Shown here: piece by piece, positions 723-39,515 of the stretch
Position numbering within the stretch: position 1 is the stretch's first letter
Layout: each line of letters starts with the position of its first letter
Assembly (NCBI GenBank): GCA_963831155.1
Contig: CAWHOY010000006.1
Location: 778,987 to 842,986 of the forward strand
DNA: 64,000 bases
DNA from: an uncultured Acidimicrobiaceae bacterium
Lineage (GTDB): Bacteria; Actinomycetota; Acidimicrobiia; Acidimicrobiales; Bog-793
Direction of reading: 5' to 3'
Program-made: the position numbers and the translations under genes
Notes under the pieces: model-generated
Databases searched by the model: none
What the model was told of the DNA's origin: nothing
Seen by the model: the letters and a program-made list of their open reading frames with translations, nothing else

Positions 723-3700
723 ATGACGAGGTCGGATGCCGAGGCCTCATTCGTCCACCTCCACCAGCACACCGAGTTCTCGATGCTCGACGGCGCGGCG
801 CGCGTCAGAGACCTCGTCGAAGCGGCGGTCGCTGATCACCAGCCGGCGCTCGCGATCACCGACCACGGGAACATGTACGGGGTCCTCGACTTCTACGCGG
901 AGTGCAAGTCGAAGGGCATAACGCCGATCATCGGCATCGAGGCGTACATGGCGGCGAACTCGCGCTTCGACCGCCCGCTACGCCGCGGCCGTCTCGATGA
1001 CACGGGCGGCGAGGGCGAGCGCGGCGAGAAGTTGTACTACCACCTGACCGTGCTCGCGGAGACGACGACCGGCTACCGCAATTTGATGAAGCTCGCCTCC
1101 GACGCGTACTTGGAGGGCTACTTCTATAAGGCGCGGGCGGACTGGGACCTGTTCGAGCGCTACCACGAGGGCCTGATCGCGACGAGCGGATGCCTCGGCG
1201 GGGTCGTCGCGCAGGCTTTGTTGCACGGCGATGAGGCCGAAGCGAAATCGCTCGCCGGTCGTCTGCAGGACATCTTCGGACACGACAACTTCTTCATCGA
1301 GCTGCAGGACCATGGGATCCCCGATCAGCGCAAGATCAATCCGCATCTGGTCGAGATCGCCCGGGCGCTCGACGCGCCGTTGGTCGCGACGAACGATGCG
1401 CACTACTGCCGCAGAGAAGACGCCGTCGCGCACGACGCGCTGTTATGCGTGCAGACAGGAACGACTATCGACGACCCGAAGAGATTCAAGTTCGAAGGAT
1501 CCGAGCACTACCTGAAGCCGGCCGCGGAGATGCGCGACCTGTTCCGCGACCATCCCGACGCATGTGACAACACGCTGTGGATCGCGCGGCGGGCGAATGT
1601 CGAGATCGAGCTCGGCAAGCCGGTGCTGCCCGAGTTCCCGATCCCATCCGAGTTCCAGGCGGCTTCGCAAGAGGCCTCGGCGATGGCTTACCTACGCCAT
1701 CTCGCCATCCAGGGCGCAAAGGAACGCTTCGGCGATCCGTTCCCGGACGAGGTCGAAGAGCGCCTCGACTACGAACTCGGTGTCATCGAGAACATGGGGT
1801 TCGCCGCGTATTTCCTCGTCGTCTGGGACCTGATCGCCTACGCGCGCTCCGAGAACATCCGCGTCGGCCCCGGCCGGGGCTCTGCGGCTGGATGCCTCGT
1901 CGCCTACTGCCTGAGGATCGTCGACATCAACCCGATCCGGTACGGACTCGTTTTCGAGCGGTTCTTGAACCCGGGCCGCAAGCAGATGCCCGACATCGAC
2001 ATGGACTTCGACGAGCGCTACCGCTCCCAGATAATCAAGTACGCCGCCGAACGATACGGCTACGACCATGTCGCGCAGATCGTCACCTTCTCGCGCATCA
2101 AGGCCCGGGCCGCCGTGCGCGACGCGGCGCGCGTCCTCGGACTGCCGTACATCGTCGGTGATCGCGTCGCGAAGGCGATGCCGCCGCTTGTGATGGGAAG
2201 AGACACACCGCTCGACGCGTGCTTCGTAAAGCAGAAGGACTTCGAAAGCTCGTACGCCGCGGCAGCCGGGCTGCGGGAGATGTACGAAGCGGACGCCGAC
2301 GCGAAAACGGTGATCGACGTCGCCCGCGGACTCGAGGGATTGCGCCGCCAGGACGGCATCCACGCCGCTGCGGTCGTGATCACGAAAGAGCCGCTCACCG
2401 AGTACCTGCCCATCCAGCGCAAGCCGGAGCCCGGACAGGATCCGTCTGAGTCGCCGATCGTCACCCAGTACGAGATGCACGGCGTCGAAGCGCTCGGGCT
2501 GTTGAAGATGGACTTCCTCGGGCTGCGCAACCTGTCTGTGATCGAGACGGCGCTCGACCTCATCGAGCAGGCGACGGGTGAGCGACCCGACATCGACAAC
2601 GTGCCGCTCGACGACGAAAAGACCTTCGAGATGCTGCGGCGCGGCGACACGATTGGTGTCTTCCAGCTCGAAGGCGGCGCGATGCGAACGACGGTGCGCG
2701 CCCTCGCGCCGACGACCTTCGATCACGTCGCGGCGCTAGTTGCCCTCTACCGGCCCGGACCGATGGCCCAGGGATGGCACCGCGACTACCCCGAGCTGAA
2801 GAACGGCCGGATGCCGATCGTCTATCTGCATCCGGACATGGAACAGGTGCTCGGAGACACCTACGGTCTGATGCTCTACCAGGAGTCGGTGATGCGCGTC
2901 GCGCAGCGCTTCGCCGGCTACTCGCTCGAGGCCTCCGACAACTTGCGCAAGGCCGTCGGAAAGAAAGACCGCGACCTGATCGAGGCCGAGCGCGAGAAGT
3001 TCATCCAGGGTTGTGTCCACAACGGATACGGGGATCAGCTCGGCAACACGCTGTTCGAGCAGATCAAGCCCTTCGCCGACTACGCGTTCAACAAGTCCCA
3101 CGCCTACGGCTACGGGCTCGTCGCCTACCAAACCGCCTGGCTGAAGGCGAACTATCCGGTCGAGTACCTGGCCGCCTTGTTGTCCTCGGTGAAAGACGAC
3201 AAGGACAAGACCGCCGTCTACTTGGCCGAGTGCCGCAATCTCGGGATCAACGTGCGCGTGCCCGACATCAACGAATCGTCATCGAACTTCACCGCGAAAC
3301 GATCCGAGGATCCGTCTTCTGGTCCAGGGACGATCATCTTCGGGCTCTCGGCGGTCAGAAACGTCGGCGAGGGAGTCGTCGCGCAAATCGTCTCAGAGCG
3401 CCTGCGCAACGGTCCGTTCGCCGACTTCCACGACTTTTGCTGCCGGGTCGATCCGTTCGCGTTGAACAAGCGATCGGTCGAATCGCTCATCAAAGCGGGC
3501 GCCTTCGACAGCGTCGGCCATCCGAGAAAAGGGCTCTGCCTGGTCTCAGAAGAGGTCATCGATCACGTCTTGGAGCGCCGCCGCGAAGAAGAGCTCGGCA
3601 TCTCGACGCTGTTCTCGGTGCTCTCCGAGCCGGCCGCAGACGTGGCTTCCACACTCGATGAAGCACGGCGGGAAGTGCCCGACCTCGAGTTCGACAAGAC

Positions 3701-4334
3701 GGATCGGCTGGCGTTCGAAAAGGAGATGCTCGGCCTCTACGTCTCGGATCACCCGTTGATGGGACTCGAGGGCGCGCTCCGCCAGAAGACCGAGATCTCG
3801 CTGCGCGAGCTGTTGGACCAGGCGTCGGCCCCCGACGCGGTCGCCGACCTCGGCGCGCCGCGCATCGTCGGCGGCGTCGTGACGGCGCTCAACAGGCGAC
3901 GGACGCGCCGCGGTGAGCTCATGGCGACCTTCGTGCTCGAGGATTTGGAGTCGGCTATCGAGGTGTTCGTCTTCCCGTCGACGATGCGCGAGTACGGCAT
4001 GCGACTCGAGGACGACGCGATCGTCATCGTCCGGGGCCGACTCGACCTGCGGGAGGACACGCCGAAGTTCGTCGCGATGGAGGTCACCCGCCCGGAGATC
4101 TCTCCGGGCGACGGGCCGGGCCGCATCGAGGTCGCCGTCCCGGTCTCCTCGATAACCGACTCGATCGTCCAGAAGCTGAAAGAGCTCGTCACCGAGCACC
4201 CCGGCTCGGTGCCGGTTCACATCCGGCTGGGGCCGAAATTGATCCGGCTTCCTTCCCAGTTCAACGTGGAACCCGGCGCCGGTCTTGTCGGCGCCCTGAA
4301 GGAACTCCTCGGCCAGAATGCGGTCAGCGCGTAG
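723..4334 (+). CDS. dnaE: DNA polymerase III alpha subunit (DnaE1)
   Basis: The ORF opens at GTG 699. ATG 723 has GGAGG 7 nt upstream. It carries the PHP motif FVHLHQHTEFSMLDGA and is a full-length alpha subunit of about 1200 aa. Confidence 0.95.
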   Translation: MTRSDAEASFVHLHQHTEFSMLDGAARVRDLVEAAVADHQPALAITDHGNMYGVLDFYAECKSKGITPIIGIEAYMAANSRFDRPLRRGRLDDTGGEGERGEKLYYHLTVLAETTTGYRNLMKLASDAYLEGYFYKARADWDLFERYHEGLIATSGCLGGVVAQALLHGDEAEAKSLAGRLQDIFGHDNFFIELQDHGIPDQRKINPHLVEIARALDAPLVATNDAHYCRREDAVAHDALLCVQTGTTIDDPKRFKFEGSEHYLKPAAEMRDLFRDHPDACDNTLWIARRANVEIELGKPVLPEFPIPSEFQAASQEASAMAYLRHLAIQGAKERFGDPFPDEVEERLDYELGVIENMGFAAYFLVVWDLIAYARSENIRVGPGRGSAAGCLVAYCLRIVDINPIRYGLVFERFLNPGRKQMPDIDMDFDERYRSQIIKYAAERYGYDHVAQIVTFSRIKARAAVRDAARVLGLPYIVGDRVAKAMPPLVMGRDTPLDACFVKQKDFESSYAAAAGLREMYEADADAKTVIDVARGLEGLRRQDGIHAAAVVITKEPLTEYLPIQRKPEPGQDPSESPIVTQYEMHGVEALGLLKMDFLGLRNLSVIETALDLIEQATGERPDIDNVPLDDEKTFEMLRRGDTIGVFQLEGGAMRTTVRALAPTTFDHVAALVALYRPGPMAQGWHRDYPELKNGRMPIVYLHPDMEQVLGDTYGLMLYQESVMRVAQRFAGYSLEASDNLRKAVGKKDRDLIEAEREKFIQGCVHNGYGDQLGNTLFEQIKPFADYAFNKSHAYGYGLVAYQTAWLKANYPVEYLAALLSSVKDDKDKTAVYLAECRNLGINVRVPDINESSSNFTAKRSEDPSSGPGTIIFGLSAVRNVGEGVVAQIVSERLRNGPFADFHDFCCRVDPFALNKRSVESLIKAGAFDSVGHPRKGLCLVSEEVIDHVLERRREEELGISTLFSVLSEPAADVASTLDEARREVPDLEFDKTDRLAFEKEMLGLYVSDHPLMGLEGALRQKTEISLRELLDQASAPDAVADLGAPRIVGGVVTALNRRRTRRGELMATFVLEDLESAIEVFVFPSTMREYGMRLEDDAIVIVRGRLDLREDTPKFVAMEVTRPEISPGDGPGRIEVAVPVSSITDSIVQKLKELVTEHPGSVPVHIRLGPKLIRLPSQFNVEPGAGLVGALKELLGQNAVSA

Positions 4335-34494: not shown

Positions 34495-34900
34495 GGGACG
34501 CGAACCCACCCCCGGCGAGCGACGCGCCGCGCGCGAGCGCGCGCTCGACCTTTTGTACGAAGCCGAGGCAAAGGACACGACGCCGAGCGACGTGCTCGCT
34601 TCCCTGCCGGTCGAACCGGATCCTTTCGCCGAAGAGCTCGTCCGCGGTGTCGAGGGCGACCTCCAGACGATCGATACGTTGATCGCGAAGCACGCCGAAG
34701 GTTGGGCCGTCGATCGCATGCCGGTGGTCGACCGGCAGCTGATGCGGATCGCGACCTACGAGTTGCTCGCGCGCGACGATGTCAGTCGGGCCGTCGTCAT
34801 CGACGAAGCGGTTGATCTGGCGAAGGACTTCTCGACGGCGGAGTCCGGTGCCTACGTGAACGGCGTGCTCTCCGCGATCGCCGACGAGCTCGGCCGATGA
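34472..34900 (+). CDS. nusB: Transcription antitermination factor NusB
   Basis: AARERALDLLYEAE... pattern and conserved position after efp. GTG 34472 overlaps the efp 3' end by 23 nt. Confidence 0.85.
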   Translation: MSTSRARRGREPTPGERRAARERALDLLYEAEAKDTTPSDVLASLPVEPDPFAEELVRGVEGDLQTIDTLIAKHAEGWAVDRMPVVDRQLMRIATYELLARDDVSRAVVIDEAVDLAKDFSTAESGAYVNGVLSAIADELGR

Positions 34901-35994
34901 ACAGCAACGACGCCTACTCCGACTCGGGCGTCGACTACACGGTCTTGGACGAGGGGAAGCGCCGGGCGCTCAGCGCGGCGCGGGCGACGGCGCAAAACCC
35001 CGCCCGGCGCGGGGCGGTGGTCGAACCGTCGAGCTACGGCGAACCGGCGGCGATCGTCCACGTCGGTGACGAGGACCTCGCCTTCGTGCTCGAGTGCCTC
35101 GGCACGAAGTCGCTCGTCGCGAGCGAGGTCGAGGCCGAGCTCGGGATCGACCGTTTCTGTGACGTCGGATACGACACCGTGGCGGCGGCGGCGAACGATT
35201 GTGTCTCTGTCGGTGCTCTTCCGTTGGTCGTTAACGCCTACTTCGCGGCCGGGGCGGACTTCTACAAGAGCGGGCGCCACGCAGCGCTCGTCGAGGGATT
35301 CCGTCTCGCCTGTGACGAAGCGGGCGCGGCGTGGGGTGGAGGTGAGTCGCCGACGCTCGCTGGACTCGTCGCCGACGGCGCCGTCGACCTCGCCGCGGCG
35401 GTTTTCGGAAGGGTGCCGAGGGGGCACGCGCCGCTGCTGGGCGGTGCGCTCCAGGCGGGCGACGAGATCGTGCTCGTCGCGTCGAACGGTCTCCACCAAA
35501 ACGGCGCCTCGCTCGCCCGTCGCGTCGCCCGGGAGGACCCGGCGTCGTGGTCGGCGAAGCTCGCATCTGGCCGCGCGCTCGGCGAGGCGGTTTTGGACCA
35601 CGGCTTGTTGTACGTCGGACTGTTCGAAGCGCTCTACGCGGCAGGCGTCATACCGCACTACGCGAGCCACATCACCGGGCATGGATGGCGCAAGCTGATG
35701 CGTGCGGATCGCGAGCTCACCTACAGGATAGAGGCGCTTCCCGAAGTGCCCGAAGTGCTCGCGTTCCTCGTCGAAAGGGCGGGGCTCGAAGCGTCCGAGG
35801 CCTACGCGACATTCAACATGGGTGCCGGCCTGGCGCTCTATGTCGCAAAAGGCGCGGCTGGAGAAGTGATCGACGTCGCGCGCTCGGTCGGGATCGCCGC
35901 GCAGGCGGCGGGTCGCGTGCAGGTCGGCCCGCGCCGGGTCGTCATCGTCCCGCTCGGCGTCGAGTACGCAAAAGAGAGCCTCGAGATCCGCTGA
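34897..35994 (+). CDS. AIR-synthase-related (PurM superfamily) protein of unknown specificity
   Basis: 365 aa. PurM-like N- and C-domains (DVGYDTVAAAANDCVSVGA...GGGESP). ATGA overlap with nusB. It does not match canonical PurM at the N-terminus. Confidence 0.65.
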   Translation: MNSNDAYSDSGVDYTVLDEGKRRALSAARATAQNPARRGAVVEPSSYGEPAAIVHVGDEDLAFVLECLGTKSLVASEVEAELGIDRFCDVGYDTVAAAANDCVSVGALPLVVNAYFAAGADFYKSGRHAALVEGFRLACDEAGAAWGGGESPTLAGLVADGAVDLAAAVFGRVPRGHAPLLGGALQAGDEIVLVASNGLHQNGASLARRVAREDPASWSAKLASGRALGEAVLDHGLLYVGLFEALYAAGVIPHYASHITGHGWRKLMRADRELTYRIEALPEVPEVLAFLVERAGLEASEAYATFNMGAGLALYVAKGAAGEVIDVARSVGIAAQAAGRVQVGPRRVVIVPLGVEYAKESLEIR

Positions 35995-36029
35995 CGAATC
36001 GGGTCAGATCTAGCCGAAGGGAGAGCCAA

Positions 36030-36401
36030 ATGGCAGAGACGAACTACGTCATCAACATGGAGCCGCTCTTTTCCTCGCTTGAGCGGTTCGACGTCGACGA
36101 GATTGCCGCCGGTGTCGACGAACCCTGGTGGAACCAGACGTTGATCGGGATCGGCGACGACCTCGTCCGTCTCGGCGTCTTCGAAGGCGAGTATCACTGG
36201 CACAAGCACGACGACCAGGACGAGTTCTTCTTCGTACTCGACGGCGCGATGCGCATCGAGCTCGAAGGTCATGACCCAGCCGAGCTCGGAAAGCACCAGG
36301 GCTTCTCTGTCCCCAAGGGCCTCAAGCACCGACCGGTCGTGCCGACGCGCTCTGTCGTTCTGATGATCGAGAAGGCGAGCATCGTTCCGACCGGAGACTG
36401 A
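36030..36401 (+). CDS. Cupin-domain protein
   Basis: 123 aa from ATG 36030 (GAAGGGAGAG upstream). Cupin motif G.YHWHKHDDQDEFFFVLDG....L.... Confidence 0.65.
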   Translation: MAETNYVINMEPLFSSLERFDVDEIAAGVDEPWWNQTLIGIGDDLVRLGVFEGEYHWHKHDDQDEFFFVLDGAMRIELEGHDPAELGKHQGFSVPKGLKHRPVVPTRSVVLMIEKASIVPTGD

Positions 36402-37076
36402 TCAGCTCGCGCGGCGGACCTCTCCGGATTCGTCCTCCCGCGGCGCGGCGATGCCGTGGCGGGGCACGATGATCTCGTCGATCAGCCCATAACAGCGTGC
36501 TTCTTCGGGCGTCAAGAAGTAGTCACGATCGATGTCGCGCTTCACTTTTTCGACGGGCTTGCCGGAATGGAAAGCGATGATCTCTGCCATCCGCTCGGTG
36601 AGCGAGAGCACCTCGCGCAGCTGGATCTCCATGTCGGTCGGCGCGCCCCGCGTTCCAGCATGTCCTTGGTGGATCATCACCTTCGACGAGGGCAGCGCGA
36701 AGCGCTTCCCCTTTGCGCCGCCGCACAACACCATTGCTGCGGCGGACATCGCCATGCCGACACAGGTCGTCGAGACGTCGCAGCGAACGTGCTGCATCAC
36801 GTCGTAGATCGCCATGCCGGCGTATGCTGCCCCGCCCGGCGAGTTGATGTAGAGAGTGATGTCCTTTTCGGGGTCTTCTGCTTCGAGGTAGAGCATCTCG
36901 GCGATGATGAGGTTGGCGACGTCGTCATCGATCTCGCTTCCGAGAAAGACGATGCGTTCTTTCAACAGCAACGAGAAGATGTCGAAGACGCGTTCACCGC
37001 GACCCGAAGACTCGATGACCGTCGGGATGACGGAACGGAGTTGGAAAGAGTTGGCGGAATCCCGTGTGGTTGGCAT
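36402..37076 (-). CDS. clpP: ATP-dependent Clp protease proteolytic subunit (catalytically intact, solitary paralog)
   Basis: 224 aa. [15 protein letters not shown] (Ser), MIHQ (His) and [11 protein letters not shown] (Asp) are all present. Its stop abuts the cupin stop with zero spacer. Confidence 0.9.
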
Positions 37077-37087
37077 CTCGGTTATGA

Positions 37088-37105
37088 TATCTCAAATATG
37101 AGATA
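37088..37105. promoter_or_regulatory. AT-rich inverted repeat TATCTCA-AATA-TGAGATA in the clpP / XRE divergent promoter region; candidate operator
   Basis: 7-bp perfect arms centred in the 49-nt gap between the clpP start (37076) and the XRE start (37126). It sits in the most AT-rich stretch I noticed by eye. Confidence 0.45.
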
Positions 37106-37125
37106 CTCGACCCGGCAGGTGCTTC

Positions 37126-37398
37126 GTGGCTGACGCAGAGCGCAAACGCCGGCTGCCCGGCTTCAAGGAGATGGCCGTACGCCAACGTGAGCTCGGCACC
37201 GAGTTCGCGCTGCGACGCCAGGCGCTCGGCCTCTCCCAGACCGAAGTCGCGGCGCGGATGGGAACATCGCAGTCAGCCGTGGCGCGTCTCGAAGCCGGTG
37301 CGCTCGACGTGCGGCTTTCGACGCTCGCTCGCTATGCGCAGGCGCTCGGCGACGACGTCGACGTGCACCTCCTCGGCGGGGAAGCAAAGCGCCGATGA
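37126..37398 (+). CDS. XRE-family helix-turn-helix transcriptional regulator
   Basis: 90 aa. LRRQALGLSQTEVAARMGTSQSAVARLEAG is a classic HTH_3/31 signature. Confidence 0.8.
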   Translation: MADAERKRRLPGFKEMAVRQRELGTEFALRRQALGLSQTEVAARMGTSQSAVARLEAGALDVRLSTLARYAQALGDDVDVHLLGGEAKRR

Positions 37399-38003
37399 AC
37401 ACGCCGGAATTTCCGGACGCGATCCGCGGGCGGCTCTTTGAAGAACGCGTCATCTCGCTTTTCGGTCCGCTCACCGACGAGGCGGTGTCGGACGTCGCCG
37501 CCCAGCTCTGGACGCTCGATGCGGCCGGAGATGACCCGGTGACGCTGATGCTGTCGTGCCGGCAGGGATCCGTGCGCTCGACGTTCGCCCTGGTCGATGC
37601 GTTCGACGTCGTCGATGTCGAGGTGCACGCCACCTGCCTCGGAGCACTCGAGGGTCCACCCATCGGAATCCTCGCCGCCTGCTCTCGCCGGCGCGCTGCG
37701 CCGAACACGCGCTTTTTCCTGCGGGACGAGCCGACATCGATCGGCGGGTCGTATCGGACCTTGCAGCAATCCGCGGAGGTGCTCTTCGAGGAGCGGCGCC
37801 AGCTACTCGAGCGGCTCGCCGCCTCGACGAACGGCCGGCGATCGCTCGGCGACCTCGTCGCCGACTTCGACAAAGGTCGCACCCTCACCGCCGAGGAGGC
37901 GATCGCCTACGGGCTGATCGACGAGGTGACGCCCGATGTCGACCGGATCGTCGCCTTGCGACGGCAGAACCCGGGGATCGGTTTCAAAAAGCCGAGGCCC
38001 TAG
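37395..38003 (+). CDS. ClpP-fold protein lacking the Ser-His-Asp triad (ClpR-like pseudoprotease)
   Basis: 202 aa, alignable along its length to the adjacent ClpP (ERVISLFGPL.., ..EEAIAYGLIDEV). Triad positions read Gly87, Arg110 and Gly161. ATGA overlap with the XRE gene. Confidence 0.75.
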   Translation: MNTPEFPDAIRGRLFEERVISLFGPLTDEAVSDVAAQLWTLDAAGDDPVTLMLSCRQGSVRSTFALVDAFDVVDVEVHATCLGALEGPPIGILAACSRRRAAPNTRFFLRDEPTSIGGSYRTLQQSAEVLFEERRQLLERLAASTNGRRSLGDLVADFDKGRTLTAEEAIAYGLIDEVTPDVDRIVALRRQNPGIGFKKPRP

Positions 38004-38030
38004 AGCCGGGCCCGGTTCTGCGCGTGCTGG

Positions 38031-39515
38031 TTAGTTCGCGCTCGCCGGGCTCGGCACGACACGCGGTTCCGTTGCCACCTCGGGAACCTCCCGCCGCGAA
38101 TTGCGGATCGTCACCAACGCGAGCAGTCCACCGGCCGCGCAAGCGCCGGCGGCGATGAGCACGGCGTTGCGAAATCCGGAGTTGAACAGCAGCGGCTTCA
38201 AATAGGAACGCCCGCCGATCCCTGCTGCTGCGGGAAGCACGGCGACGGCGATCAGGCTCGCGGCGCGCGCGACGGCGTTGTTCACCGCCGAGGCGACGCC
38301 CATGTTCTGGTCGGGTGCCGAGCCGAGCACGGTCGCGGTCAGCGGAGCGACGGTCAGGCTGAGACCGAAACCGAAGACCAAGATCGCTGGGAGCACGACT
38401 CCCTGATACGTCGCGCCGGGGCTGATGCGCGCAAAGAGCGCCAGCCCACCCCCGGCGATGATCGGTCCGAAGCCCATGAAAAAGCGCGGTCCGAAGCGCG
38501 ACGAGAGGGCGCCGAATCGCGCGGAAAAGAAAAAGAGCACCATCGACGCCGGTAACAGCCCGCCGCCTGCTTCGAGCGGTGTGAAGTGCAGAACCTGTTC
38601 GAGTTCGACCGGTGCGAGGAAGAACGCGCCACCGAACGCGGCGTAGATGAAAAATGTCGCAAGGTTGGCGGCGCTGAACTGTCGCGACGAGAAGATGCGA
38701 AGAGGAACGAGCGGATTCGCCGAGCGCCGCTCGATGAAGATGAAGGAAACCAAGACCGCAGCGCCGCCGATGATCGCGACGAGCTCGCTCGGTGACGTCC
38801 AGCCGACCGACGGTCCCTCGATCAACCCATAGGTGAGGCCGACGAGGCCGAAAGTCGCCGCCGCCGCTCCGGTGAGGTCGACGCGCCCTGTCTCGAGCGG
38901 GTTGCGGGTCTCAGGGACGTGGCGCTGTGAGAGCGCGACGACGGCGATGGCGATCGGGGCGTTGATGTAGAAGATCAGTCTCCACGAGACGGCGTCGATC
39001 AGGTAACCGCCGAGGAACGGCCCGATCGCCGCCGCGATGACGCCGAGCCCGGACCAGGCGCCGATGGCGCGCGAGCGGTCCTCTTTCGCGAAGACGGCTT
39101 CGATGATCGCCAGACTGCCCGGCGTCAACAGCGCACCGCCGACACCTTGCGCGGCGCGCGCCCCGATCAACACGCCGGTATCGGGAGCAACCCCACAGAC
39201 CATCGAGGCGACTGCGAACGCGATGACGCCGATGACAAAGATCCGGCGGCGCCCGTAGCGGTCGCCGAGTGCGCCCCCGAGGAGGATCAATCCGGAAAGG
39301 GTGAGCATGTAGGCGTTGACGAGCCACTGGAGATCCGCGACCGAGGCGTGGAAATCCTTGCCGATCGCGGGCAGTGCGATGTTCACGACGGTGCTGTCGA
39401 TGAAGGCCATCCCGGATCCGAGGACGGTCGCGGCGAGGACGAAGCGCCCCTTCGCCGTCGAATAGCGGATTGGTTCGAACCCGGCCGTGGCGGCTCCGGT
39501 CTGCTGAATCGCCAT
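38031..39515 (-). CDS. MFS transporter, DHA2/EmrB-like (14-TMS type)
   Basis: 494 aa. GSGMAFIDSTVVNIALP and LGDRYGRRR motifs with many hydrophobic segments. Confidence 0.85.
   Translation of the reverse strand: MAIQQTGAATAGFEPIRYSTAKGRFVLAATVLGSGMAFIDSTVVNIALPAIGKDFHASVADLQWLVNAYMLTLSGLILLGGALGDRYGRRRIFVIGVIAFAVASMVCGVAPDTGVLIGARAAQGVGGALLTPGSLAIIEAVFAKEDRSRAIGAWSGLGVIAAAIGPFLGGYLIDAVSWRLIFYINAPIAIAVVALSQRHVPETRNPLETGRVDLTGAAAATFGLVGLTYGLIEGPSVGWTSPSELVAIIGGAAVLVSFIFIERRSANPLVPLRIFSSRQFSAANLATFFIYAAFGGAFFLAPVELEQVLHFTPLEAGGGLLPASMVLFFFSARFGALSSRFGPRFFMGFGPIIAGGGLALFARISPGATYQGVVLPAILVFGFGLSLTVAPLTATVLGSAPDQNMGVASAVNNAVARAASLIAVAVLPAAAGIGGRSYLKPLLFNSGFRNAVLIAAGACAAGGLLALVTIRNSRREVPEVATEPRVVPSPASAN

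Follow-up and report, generated by a model that had tools for sequence, protein, structure and literature searches.

Among bacterial proteases, ClpP has a central place, and antibiotics such as the ADEPs target it in actinobacteria; how cells regulate entry to its docking pockets is under active study. The IGF/LGF tripeptide loops of ClpX, ClpA, and ClpC dock on ClpP, and ADEPs are small-molecule mimics of these loops. To our knowledge, cyanobacteria and plastids are the only settings in which non-catalytic ClpP subunits have been studied well, and for Actinobacteria we know of a single 2026 paper that notes a non-catalytic ClpP, the context of which is not given. The regulators ClgR and PopR carry a C-terminal Ala-Ala degron. 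Both undergo Clp-dependent turnover (PMC9765437). Clp-ATPase loops bind hydrophobic pockets of ClpP through conserved tripeptide motifs (PMC8745299).

The nearest published parallels to the locus described here are ClpR and the triad-less ClpP3 of Actinoplanes. ClpP3 of Actinoplanes missouriensis (AMIS_15950) lacks the catalytic triad and the pocket aromatics and is 22-26% identical to its active paralogs; mutants without it show a phenotype, and it was interpreted by the authors as a ClpR-type subunit (PMC13689560, J Bacteriol 2026). The same paper reports the Streptomyces ClpPs SCO7280, SGR6291, and Sven0839 as lacking the triad. Here, we analyze a locus in which an active clpP lies divergent from an XRE-family regulator and a triad-less ClpP paralog (hereafter dead ClpP). 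We propose that the module is autorepressed and that its dead paralog acts as a non-catalytic, ClpP-binding partner, a reading in which our confidence is about evenly balanced.

Results

An active clpP faces a regulator coupled to a dead paralog

The locus lies within a 64-kb window, the whole stretch of DNA that was analyzed, and comprises the following features:

36402..37076, minus strand: active canonical clpP, 224 aa (PF00574 246 bits; NF001368 283 bits, above the cut-off)
36744-36746, 36669-36671, and 36522-36524, minus strand: codons of the clpP catalytic residues Ser111, His136, and Asp185, respectively
37077..37125, no strand assigned: divergent intergenic region of 49 nt, which must house both promoters
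37088..37105, no strand assigned: perfect palindrome TATCTCA-aata-TGAGATA (7-nt arms, 100% complementary), the predicted XRE operator
37126..37398, plus strand: XRE-family HTH regulator, 90 aa, GTG start (HTH_31/HTH_3)
37395..37398, plus strand: ATGA overlap between the XRE stop and the dead ClpP start
37395..38003, plus strand: triad-less ClpP-fold pseudoenzyme, 202 aa (PF00574 82.8 bits)
37653-37655, 37722-37724, and 37875-37877, plus strand: codons of the dead ClpP at the triad columns, Gly87, Arg110, and Gly161, respectively
37971..37994, plus strand: C-terminal tail of the dead ClpP, P-G-I-G-F-K-K-P, residues 193-200 (IGF, residues 195-197, at 37977-37985)

On recomputation, the coordinates, the 49-nt gap, the ATGA overlap, and the residues given in the original prediction were all correct. 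The triad of clpP is intact as claimed there, with Ser111, His136, and Asp185 residing in GMAMSAAA, MIHQ, and DRDYF, and the 202-aa ORF indeed aligns end to end with the neighboring ClpP (26% identity, E 6e-14). The XRE stop codon overlaps the start of the dead ClpP gene as had been described, and this ATGA arrangement indicates translational coupling of the two genes. A tblastn search revealed no further ClpP-like gene in the window besides these two and the locus is therefore not a clpP1P2 pair, again in line with what had been predicted. In a close relative (L001), the flanks are aro-efp-nusB and pyrR-pyrB-pyrC-carAB.

The active ClpP belongs to the ClpP family (PF00574/MEROPS S14), with triad, axial loops, and docking pocket all present, and its best PDB matches are ordinary ClpPs (~238 bits). 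ClpPs from cassettes of this type form one clade with short branches (100/100 support); docking-pocket and N-loop residues are conserved in 10/10 of them, and they retain every site that is lost in the dead-ClpP family. The clpP gene evolves under a dN/dS of 0.04-0.07 (unsaturated dS).

The dead paralog is a selected ClpP fold without catalytic, gating, or docking sites

At the Ser/His/Asp columns, the dead ClpP carries Gly87 (GALEGPPI), Arg110 (FLRD), and Gly161 (DKGRT), and loss of the triad also holds on E. coli ClpP numbering (S97/H122/D171). The original prediction had allowed for catalytic residues at shifted positions; three independent alignments rule out a shifted triad. The loss is a property of the family, as 214/219 sequences examined lack the triad, S97 being replaced by Gly in 204/214 members and D171 by Gly in 165/214. 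The other functional sites of ClpP have changed as well: the protein encoded here has no N-terminal axial loops and a degenerate unfoldase-docking pocket, and across the 214 members the N-loop columns are gapped in 171-204 sequences and the pocket columns read R, H, or Q for Y62 and R, A, or S for F112. The fold itself is predicted with confidence. The AlphaFold2 model reaches a pLDDT of 89.8 and a pTM of 0.80, and its best Foldseek matches are ClpP structures (TM 0.8-0.9, rmsd 1.5-1.9 Å).

Loss of all three catalytic residues, combined with an evolutionary rate above that of clpP, might point to a decaying, functionless pseudogene, and the original prediction had considered relaxed selection on this ORF. 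Such decay does not agree with the data: dN/dS is 0.14-0.25 (unsaturated dS), indicating purifying selection, the frame is intact with similar length in 348 50%-identity clusters at E <= 1e-10, and Gly occupies the position of Ser almost without exception. The confidently predicted fold and a conserved tail motif (see below) also speak against it. Selection and conservation thus refute the pseudogene idea, which we consider to have practically no probability of being correct.

The pace of change nevertheless differs markedly between the two paralogs: the dead ClpP, at 32-42% identity across loci, evolves far faster than ClpP, at 69-76%. In our tree, which contained no ClpR sequence, the dead-ClpP family forms its own clade (100/98). 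Among solved structures, its profile best matches ClpP2-type chains from actinobacteria (8xon_H and entries for M. tuberculosis ClpP2). A weak profile match from a streptomycete (P0234) turned out to be the ordinary clpP2 of a tig-clpP1-clpP2-clpX locus, outside the dead-ClpP family.

The C-terminal tail resembles a Clp-ATPase docking loop

Of 108 family tails of at least 15 aa, 87 carry a hydrophobic-G-[FY] motif, as compared to a mean of 2.7 and a maximum of 8 for shuffled tails. The motif mostly begins 15-20 residues past the core and is followed by R-P; the conserved form reads P-hydrophobic-G-F-R-P. In the AlphaFold2 model of the protein studied here, the tail has a low pLDDT (52-57), which is consistent with a flexible segment, and by sequence its IGF fits the Clp-ATPase docking tripeptide [LIV]-G-[FL] in such a segment. 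Among XRE-anchored loci, the tail is present in 10/24 with an adjacent clpP and in 0/19 without one (Fisher p = 0.001, shared ancestry uncorrected), with counts curated by hand to exclude the LGY/IGY motif of the core. The pocket of the adjacent ClpP showed no difference between tail-bearing and tail-less cassettes. If dead ClpP forms rings, up to seven tails per ring could match the seven pockets of ClpP. The suggestion that the paralog is a pseudoprotease acting as adaptor or inhibitor has gained support from these data, as the protein has no pocket or loops of its own and yet bears an unfoldase-like tail, which in our sample occurs only in loci with a neighboring active clpP.

A conserved regulator with a predicted palindromic operator

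The GTG start of the XRE gene is supported by 19 aligned homologs, all of which share the start column. Their alignment contains 36 invariant columns; an N-terminal extension, RRxxLPGFKEMA, is conserved and the recognition region GLSQTEVAARMGTSQSAVARLE is invariant. The regulator retains 66-70% identity even in loci whose dead ClpPs share no more than 32-42%. Its closest solved relatives are HigA3/HigA2 of M. tuberculosis and the 434 repressor, and its best NCBIfam match is the Y4mF/HipB antitoxin family, the NCBIfam antitoxin scores being far below the cut-off. The protein ends in ...GGEAKRR, and the C-termini of its homologs are variable and basic.

These similarities, together with the antitoxin-first gene order, the 4-nt overlap, and the upstream palindromic operator (recognized by sequence only), could be taken to suggest a type II toxin-antitoxin-like pair, in which XRE is a HigA-like antitoxin and the dead ClpP a toxin that poisons the Clp machinery, e.g. 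by plugging its pockets or by forming dead mixed rings. However, the regulator is unusually conserved for an antitoxin, the presumed toxin evolves faster than its antitoxin, and the module is syntenic in related genomes, unlike mobile toxin-antitoxin loci. In PADLOC, neither ClpP-fold protein matches any model and XRE matches HTH-type models only. We consider a toxin-antitoxin function very improbable, and continue to favor an autorepressed module with a ClpP-binding paralog.

The palindrome begins 11 nt beyond the clpP start codon. Its core, ATCTCA-N4-TGAGAT, has a single exact copy in the window and is kept in the matching intergenic region of 11/11 related loci inspected. Allowing up to two mismatches, it was found within 220 nt upstream of XRE in 61/78 metagenome loci, and in 0/66 control stretches; it is conserved both with and without an adjacent clpP. 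No full sigma-70 consensus was found in the 49-nt divergent region. Putative -10-like hexamers, TATGAT on the plus strand and TATCAT on the minus strand, appear to overlap the palindrome. Given that these are the only such hexamers and that the palindrome lies so close to the clpP start, its placement would suggest repression rather than activation. Most likely, XRE binds ATCTCA-N4-TGAGAT as a dimer.

The repressor-like placement bears on a further explanation, namely a circuit of the ClgR/PopR type comparable to Streptomyces popR-clpP3clpP4. Here, the HTH protein would activate transcription and be subject to degradation by the housekeeping Clp protease, and would switch on a ClpP/dead-ClpP core when the main protease fails. 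All three matching kinds of component are present, i.e. a small HTH protein, a clpP, and a triad-less ClpP. Furthermore, SCO7280, which is encoded with clpP3, has been reported as triad-less (PMC13689560), and clpP operons are controlled by ClgR and PopR, themselves substrates of Clp (PMC9765437). In contrast to these activators, the regulator has an operator whose position would suggest repression, as judged from the -10-like hexamers, and the operator itself is ATCTCA-N4-TGAGAT instead of CGC-N5-GCG (PMC3613350), the ClgR core motif, which is absent from 36950-37300. The gene order differs too, because the regulator here is coupled to the dead paralog. Moreover, the regulator ends in KRR, with variable C-termini among homologs and no Ala-Ala end, and no homolog in our search bore a ClgR name. 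On the two features compared, operator and C-terminus, it does not match ClgR/PopR. A circuit of this type is improbable in our view. Of the analogy to clpP3P4/PopR drawn in the original prediction, the similarity of components therefore stands, whereas operator, gene order, and C-terminus do not fit; its statement that the regulator does not resemble ClgR agrees with the operator and with the solved relatives, HigA2/HigA3 and the 434 repressor.

Regulator and dead ClpP form the invariant unit of the module

The arrangement of clpP divergent from an XRE-dead ClpP operon recurs in related genomes and on distant contigs with unrelated flanks. We collected 80 XRE-anchored metagenome loci, 68 of which had room for a downstream gene, and 67/68 encode a ClpP-fold ORF after XRE. 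The triad is absent from all 55 of these ORFs that were readable, and an overlap of the [AGT]TGA type at the XRE stop is present in 48/67 loci. A divergent active clpP accompanies the pair in 34/68 loci. The survey for both ClpP-fold genes, which had been proposed as a check, finds them side by side in one half of the loci, and the other half lacks an adjacent clpP. The invariant unit is the XRE-dead ClpP operon, with active clpP as an optional neighbor, a point that was not part of the original prediction. We found no recurrent upstream neighbor in loci without clpP. Two natural XRE-linker-dead ClpP fusions exist (P0213 and L058), and the trees of cassette ClpPs and their dead partners are congruent wherever both resolve.

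A profile scan of genome contigs returned only five loci from Acidimicrobiaceae/Acidimicrobiales MAGs and one ordinary clpP from Solimonas. The sequencing runs that contain the locus are soil metagenome DNA, with no RNA run among them, and the literature that we searched yielded no description of an XRE-dead ClpP module. The module recurs in many soil actinobacteria and probably controls the protease or partners with it.

The invariance of the pair raises the possibility that the dead ClpP is mainly a partner of XRE, i.e. an oligomerizing or signal-sensing co-regulator, and that the module is a transcriptional feedback device for which an adjacent clpP is merely one target. The signal in this case could consist of bound peptides or unfolded chains, or free ClpP or Clp-ATPase could act by titration. 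The conserved stop/start overlap and the two fusions would fit such a function, as would an operator that is maintained regardless of clpP and the prevalent Gly at the nucleophile position (204/214), which suggests a retained groove and not random decay. On the other hand, the fusions stem from one clade of short metagenome contigs, and the unfoldase-like tail, seen only in clpP-containing loci, is not by itself accounted for; if sensing were the job of the tail, both readings would merge. We regard a dead ClpP devoted mainly to XRE as possible, if doubtful, and retain the autorepressed module with a ClpP-binding paralog as our working model.

Discussion

The locus belongs to a module that soil Actinomycetota have conserved and inherited vertically, in this case in an Acidimicrobiaceae-like genome, and that is organized as a translationally coupled operon of a small, very conserved putative XRE-type repressor followed by a ClpP-fold pseudoenzyme. 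In the model that we favor, binding of an XRE dimer to the palindrome would repress, and since the 49-nt gap is shared with the divergent clpP, one operator would jointly set the levels of ClpP, regulator, and dead paralog. The latter is devoid of Ser/His/Asp and therefore cannot cleave, the absence of axial loops precludes gating, and docking of an unfoldase is unlikely given that the pocket aromatics are replaced by Arg/His/Ala. Most likely, it would bind the adjacent ClpP as a partner that contributes no catalysis. It might join ClpP by co-assembly, and/or by inserting its flexible P-I-G-F-K-K-P tail into the ClpP pockets used by ClpX/ClpC loops. Either route would alter the partners of the protease or the amount of unfoldase engaged. 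The ClpR-like heteromer put forward in the original prediction is a possible arrangement and forms part of this explanation. For DNA binding and repression, as well as for any contact between ClpP and dead ClpP, we infer these events from the features described above.

Several observations stand against this model. Half of the XRE-dead ClpP operons have no adjacent clpP and ~14/24 cassette members are tail-less; therefore, neither the neighbor nor the tail is essential to the core function. Fast evolution of the dead paralog is not what one would expect if it shared extensive interfaces within a ring with a partner that evolves slowly, and tight coupling to, or fusion with, an HTH protein points at least as much to a partnership with XRE as to one with ClpP.

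A more elaborate version of the model, which we think unlikely, combines both partnerships. The dead ClpP would form a seven-fold ring, the C-terminal tails of which plug the seven docking pockets of active ClpP, as a genetically encoded and symmetry-matched mimic of ClpX/ClpC loops or of ADEPs; the protease would be capped, activated, or blocked as a result. Through the co-translated XRE, which is fused in some lineages, the shared operator would receive a readout of pocket occupancy, and the module would constitute a self-measuring switch for free docking capacity.

Many uncultured soil actinobacteria thus keep a dead ClpP under selection, wired to a dedicated and highly conserved putative repressor with its predicted operator, and often bearing a peptide that resembles an unfoldase docking loop. 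Should the tail dock, nature would have provided a modulator of the ADEP/IGF pocket that is itself a protein, and a clear case in which a pseudoenzyme was co-opted for regulation of the catalytic enzyme it derives from. As all parts are small and easily expressed, these hypotheses are directly testable.

Comparison with known systems

With respect to regulation, the small and probably dimeric XRE protein, with a palindrome upstream of a two-gene operon, is reminiscent of HigA-type antitoxins and phage 434-type repressors. In contrast to HigA-type systems, its partner is a ClpP-fold pseudoenzyme and no known toxin, and the regulator is far more conserved. With popR/clpP3-clpP4 of Streptomyces, the locus has in common a small HTH gene divergent from a clpP locus that includes a triad-less subunit (PMC13689560), and with this system and the ClgR regulon it would share dedicated transcriptional control of a Clp core.

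The Actinoplanes ClpP3 is likewise an actinobacterial ClpP homolog without a triad and may be a member of the dead-ClpP family. A protein from Dactylosporangium, which belongs to the same bacterial family as Actinoplanes, matches the dead-ClpP profile (P0214, E 1e-51) and is solitary, with neither an XRE gene nor clpP alongside. Unlike for the module described here, PMC13689560 makes no mention of a partner of the XRE type, of an operator or tail motif, or of a clpP in divergent orientation.

The tail shares with the IGF/LGF loops of ClpX, ClpA, and ClpC a hydrophobic-Gly-Phe motif in a flexible, basic or proline-flanked segment, and the adjacent ClpP still has the pocket to which these loops bind. 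However, in this case the motif is located at the C-terminus of a ClpP-fold protein. Finally, ClpR of cyanobacteria, plastids, and apicoplasts, a component of ClpP3/R and ClpPR cores, is also a triad-less ClpP fold that is under selection and encoded beside or together with a catalytic ClpP, and a role as structural partner in a proteolytic core is plausible for the dead ClpP by analogy. While ClpR offers this precedent, the dead ClpP apparently represents a clade of its own that, among solved structures, is closest to ClpP2-type chains from actinobacteria, and its origin is likely independent of ClpR. It additionally lacks axial loops and docking pocket, is translated together with an HTH regulator, to which it is fused in some cases, and often carries a hydrophobic-G-F tail.

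The locus couples an active ClpP to a regulator and a triad-less paralog

The original prediction had placed three open reading frames at this locus, and their positions proved correct on the window sequence. The features are as follows:

36402-37076, minus strand: clpP, 224 aa (PF00574, 246 bits; above the NCBIfam ClpP subfamily cut-off); catalytic residues Ser111, His136, and Asp185 all present
37077-37125: divergent intergenic gap, 49 nt
37088-37105: perfect palindrome TATCTCA-aata-TGAGATA, predicted operator
37126-37398, plus strand: XRE gene, GTG start, 90 aa, HTH_31/HTH_3
37395-38003, plus strand: ClpP-fold ORF (dead paralog), 202 aa (PF00574, 82.8 bits)

The stop codon of the XRE gene overlaps the start of the dead-ClpP ORF (ATGA). 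The dead paralog aligns with the neighbouring ClpP along its full length (26% identity, E 6e-14), and no other ClpP-like genes were found within the 64-kb window. This cassette shares a variable nusB-pyrR insert with genes for an AIRS-domain protein, a cupin, and an MFS transporter (window 34897-39515; related-genome loci L001 and L004). Gene content of this slot varies among relatives; in L004, the cupin is missing and a PIN/PhdYeFM toxin-antitoxin pair separates the MFS gene from pyrR. Convergent packing is very tight on both sides. At the clpP end, the cupin-gene stop (36401) directly abuts the clpP stop (36402) with zero gap. At the other end, the stops of the dead-ClpP gene and the convergent MFS gene lie just 27 nt apart (38003-38031), and the one terminator-like hairpin in this stretch (38013-37995, minus strand) reaches into the 3' end of the dead-ClpP gene.

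The paralog is a maintained pseudoenzyme

Replacement of the catalytic triad by Gly87, Arg110, and Gly161, as originally predicted, was confirmed at the catalytic columns in three alignments, one of them anchored on E. coli ClpP (reference sequence identical to PDB 1tyf). The nucleophilic Ser is missing in 214 of the 219 family sequences examined; among these 214, it is replaced by Gly in 204 and the Asp by Gly in 165, while the His position is variable. The dead paralog also lacks the N-terminal axial loop, the columns of which are gapped in 171-204 of the 214 sequences, and the unfoldase-docking pocket of the family is no longer hydrophobic (E. coli numbering: Y62 to R/H/Q, F82 to L/V, F112 to R/A/S, and L114 to A/T). 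Triad, loop residues, and pocket are all kept in 10/10 copies of the active cassette ClpP examined.

Among 1.8 billion cluster representatives searched, 348 clusters matched the dead paralog at E <= 1e-10. Compared with close relatives at unsaturated dS, dN/dS is 0.14-0.25 for the dead gene, 0.04-0.07 for clpP, and 0.06-0.20 for the regulator. The AlphaFold2 model of the dead paralog is confident (pLDDT 89.8, pTM 0.80), with disorder limited to the last ~20 residues, and Foldseek superposes it on ClpP structures with a TM score of 0.8-0.9 (rmsd 1.5-1.9 A). This 202-aa pseudoenzyme is being maintained, and the probability that its ORF is a pseudogene is negligible.

The XRE gene and the dead-ClpP gene form the invariant unit

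In related Acidimicrobiaceae/Acidimicrobiales MAGs, the cassette occupies the same aro-efp-nusB ... pyrR-pyrB-pyrC-carAB neighbourhood. The same arrangement is present on distant contigs with unrelated flanks, and here the dead paralog is the fast-evolving member, being 32-43% identical as compared to 69-76% for the active ClpP and 66-70% for the regulator. In phylogenetic trees, the cassette ClpPs form a single clade (100/100) with short branches within the catalytic ClpPs, apart from the ClpP1 and ClpP2 of one streptomycete, whereas the dead family is a clade of its own (100/98); partner topologies are congruent where both resolve. In the cassette ClpPs (36402-37076; L001-L017), the Pro usually found past the catalytic His is a Gly (MIHQG vs. 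MIHQP in E. coli), and a C-terminal extension, ...IIVPRRGIAA, is conserved.

Since starting from the dead gene would bias the census, we used the regulator as the anchor for a metagenome scan and classified neighbours in 80 loci.

Table. Neighbours of the XRE gene in the regulator-anchored scan
ClpP-fold ORF immediately 3' of XRE gene: 67/68 loci with room
ORFs after XRE readable at all three triad positions: 55, 0 with triad
Divergent clpP immediately upstream of XRE: 34/68 loci with room
Upstream clpP with full triad: 25
Upstream clpP split or cut by contig end: 8
Upstream clpP reading S-H-H: 1

Loci without clpP showed no recurrent upstream neighbour, the genes there being mutually unrelated. 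We therefore regard the XRE-dead-ClpP operon as the invariant unit and clpP as its frequent, optional neighbour. In one locus without upstream clpP (L033:2747-4003), a triad-bearing ClpP (3380-4003, +) lies directly downstream of the dead paralog. At L065:1726-2418, the upstream clpP is broken into two frames, the Ser falling in one ORF and His/Asp in the other, which points to a frameshift or a misassembly of that contig. In operons without adjacent clpP (L043-L098), the ClpP domain begins a median 108 nt past the XRE stop (vs. 6 nt in clpP cassettes), and the dead paralogs have long N-terminal extensions, recalling Actinoplanes ClpP3, whose N-terminus is reported to be disordered.

In 48/67 loci, the XRE gene ends in a stop/start overlap of the form [AGT]TGA. 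Two proteins of one shared clade, P0213 and L058, are XRE-dead-ClpP fusions through a proline-rich linker. Both are single ORFs (P0213, 358 aa on a 1416-bp ENA contig; L058:504-1613), and in their close relative L072 a stop codon separates the two parts. Invariance of the pair, translational coupling, and natural fusions favour the main alternative to a ClpP-directed function, namely that the true partner of the dead paralog is the XRE protein, with the dead ClpP acting as co-repressor or sensor domain; we consider this possible, though rather unlikely.

A conserved predicted operator suggests possible autorepression

The regulator is exceptionally conserved, with 36 invariant columns among 19 sequences down to 59% identity (alignment A6). 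The recognition region GLSQTEVAARMGTSQSAVARLE is invariant throughout, and so is an N-terminal PGF..MA motif. Among solved structures, the regulator is closest to the HigA3/HigA2 antitoxins of M. tuberculosis and to the 434 repressor. A toxin-antitoxin-like pair is nevertheless improbable, since the strong conservation of the regulator and the synteny of the locus argue against it.

The palindrome begins 11 nt past the start codon of clpP, and exact ATCTCA-N4-TGAGAT occurs a single time in the window. It is kept in the matching intergenic region of every related locus inspected and, at <=2 mismatches and <=220 nt upstream of XRE, in 61/78 metagenome loci (equal-length controls: 0/66), both with and without adjacent clpP. 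A consensus scan of the divergent region found no full sigma-70 promoter; the only -10-like hexamers readable on either strand of the window's gap are overlapped by the palindrome. Given this position near the clpP start and over the hexamers, occupancy would most simply repress both divergent transcripts.

An activator circuit of the ClgR/PopR type is unlikely, as operator, regulator C-terminus, and gene order are all misfits. The ClgR core motif, CGC-N5-GCG (PMC3613350), is absent from 36950-37300, and none of the regulator's listed homologs carries the ClgR name.

A candidate docking peptide and its possible role

Hydrophobic-G-[FY] was present in the tails of 87 of the 108 family members with >=15 residues past the last core helix (shuffled tails: mean 2.7, maximum 8). 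The third residue is Phe in 86/87 tails; the motif mostly begins 15-20 residues past the core, and R-P follows. The window's dead paralog ends in P-G-I-G-F-K-K-P. Clp ATPases, as described in PMC8745299, dock via flexible tripeptide-bearing loops into hydrophobic pockets of ClpP. In the XRE-anchored sample, once spurious hits to the core LGY/IGY motif were discarded, the tail is present in 10/24 operons with adjacent clpP and in 0/19 without (Fisher's p 0.001, unadjusted for shared ancestry). The pockets of adjacent ClpPs showed no difference between tail-bearing and tail-less cassettes, and were equally intact. A second Gly-Phe motif of the module is found in the regulator, the pre-HTH extension of which has an invariant P-G-F after a hydrophobic residue (LPGF/FPGF; 37153-37170; A6).

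The best-supported reading, with about an even chance, is that the locus represses itself and that its dead paralog serves as a non-catalytic ClpP-binding partner. The dead paralog can neither cleave nor gate, and docking by an unfoldase is unlikely. Its output would keep a fixed ratio to that of the repressor and be co-regulated with ClpP, and beside clpP it often bears a peptide that would suit the docking pocket of ClpP. The dead paralog might stack as a ring on ClpP, mix into ClpP rings in a ClpR-like manner, or cap the docking face. If the tail were the regulator's sensor of free ClpP, partnership with ClpP and partnership with the XRE protein would merge into one reading.

Comparison with known ClpP relatives

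The observation underlying the original prediction stands, while its interpretation, which had ranged from a ClpR-like heteromeric protease to a PopR-like regulated core and an adaptor or inhibitor, was borne out only in part. The closest known kind to the dead paralog is ClpR of cyanobacteria and plastids. A comparable actinobacterial protein is ClpP3 of Actinoplanes missouriensis (AMIS_15950), which is without triad and pocket aromatics, causes a conditional sporangium-dehiscence defect when deleted, and is read by its authors as a ClpR-type subunit; the triad is also missing in some Streptomyces ClpPs, SCO7280 and others (J Bacteriol, September 2026; PMC13689560). This paper makes no mention of an XRE partner, operator, tail, or divergent clpP. 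A cultured Dactylosporangium carries a solitary member of the dead family (profile match E 1e-51) without XRE gene or clpP alongside, which may be the counterpart of Actinoplanes ClpP3. We found no published description of the XRE-dead-ClpP operon, the operator, or the tail in the full-text literature searched. The cassette is a real and conserved feature, undescribed in that literature; to the known theme of the non-catalytic ClpP paralog it adds a regulator of its own and a putative docking peptide.
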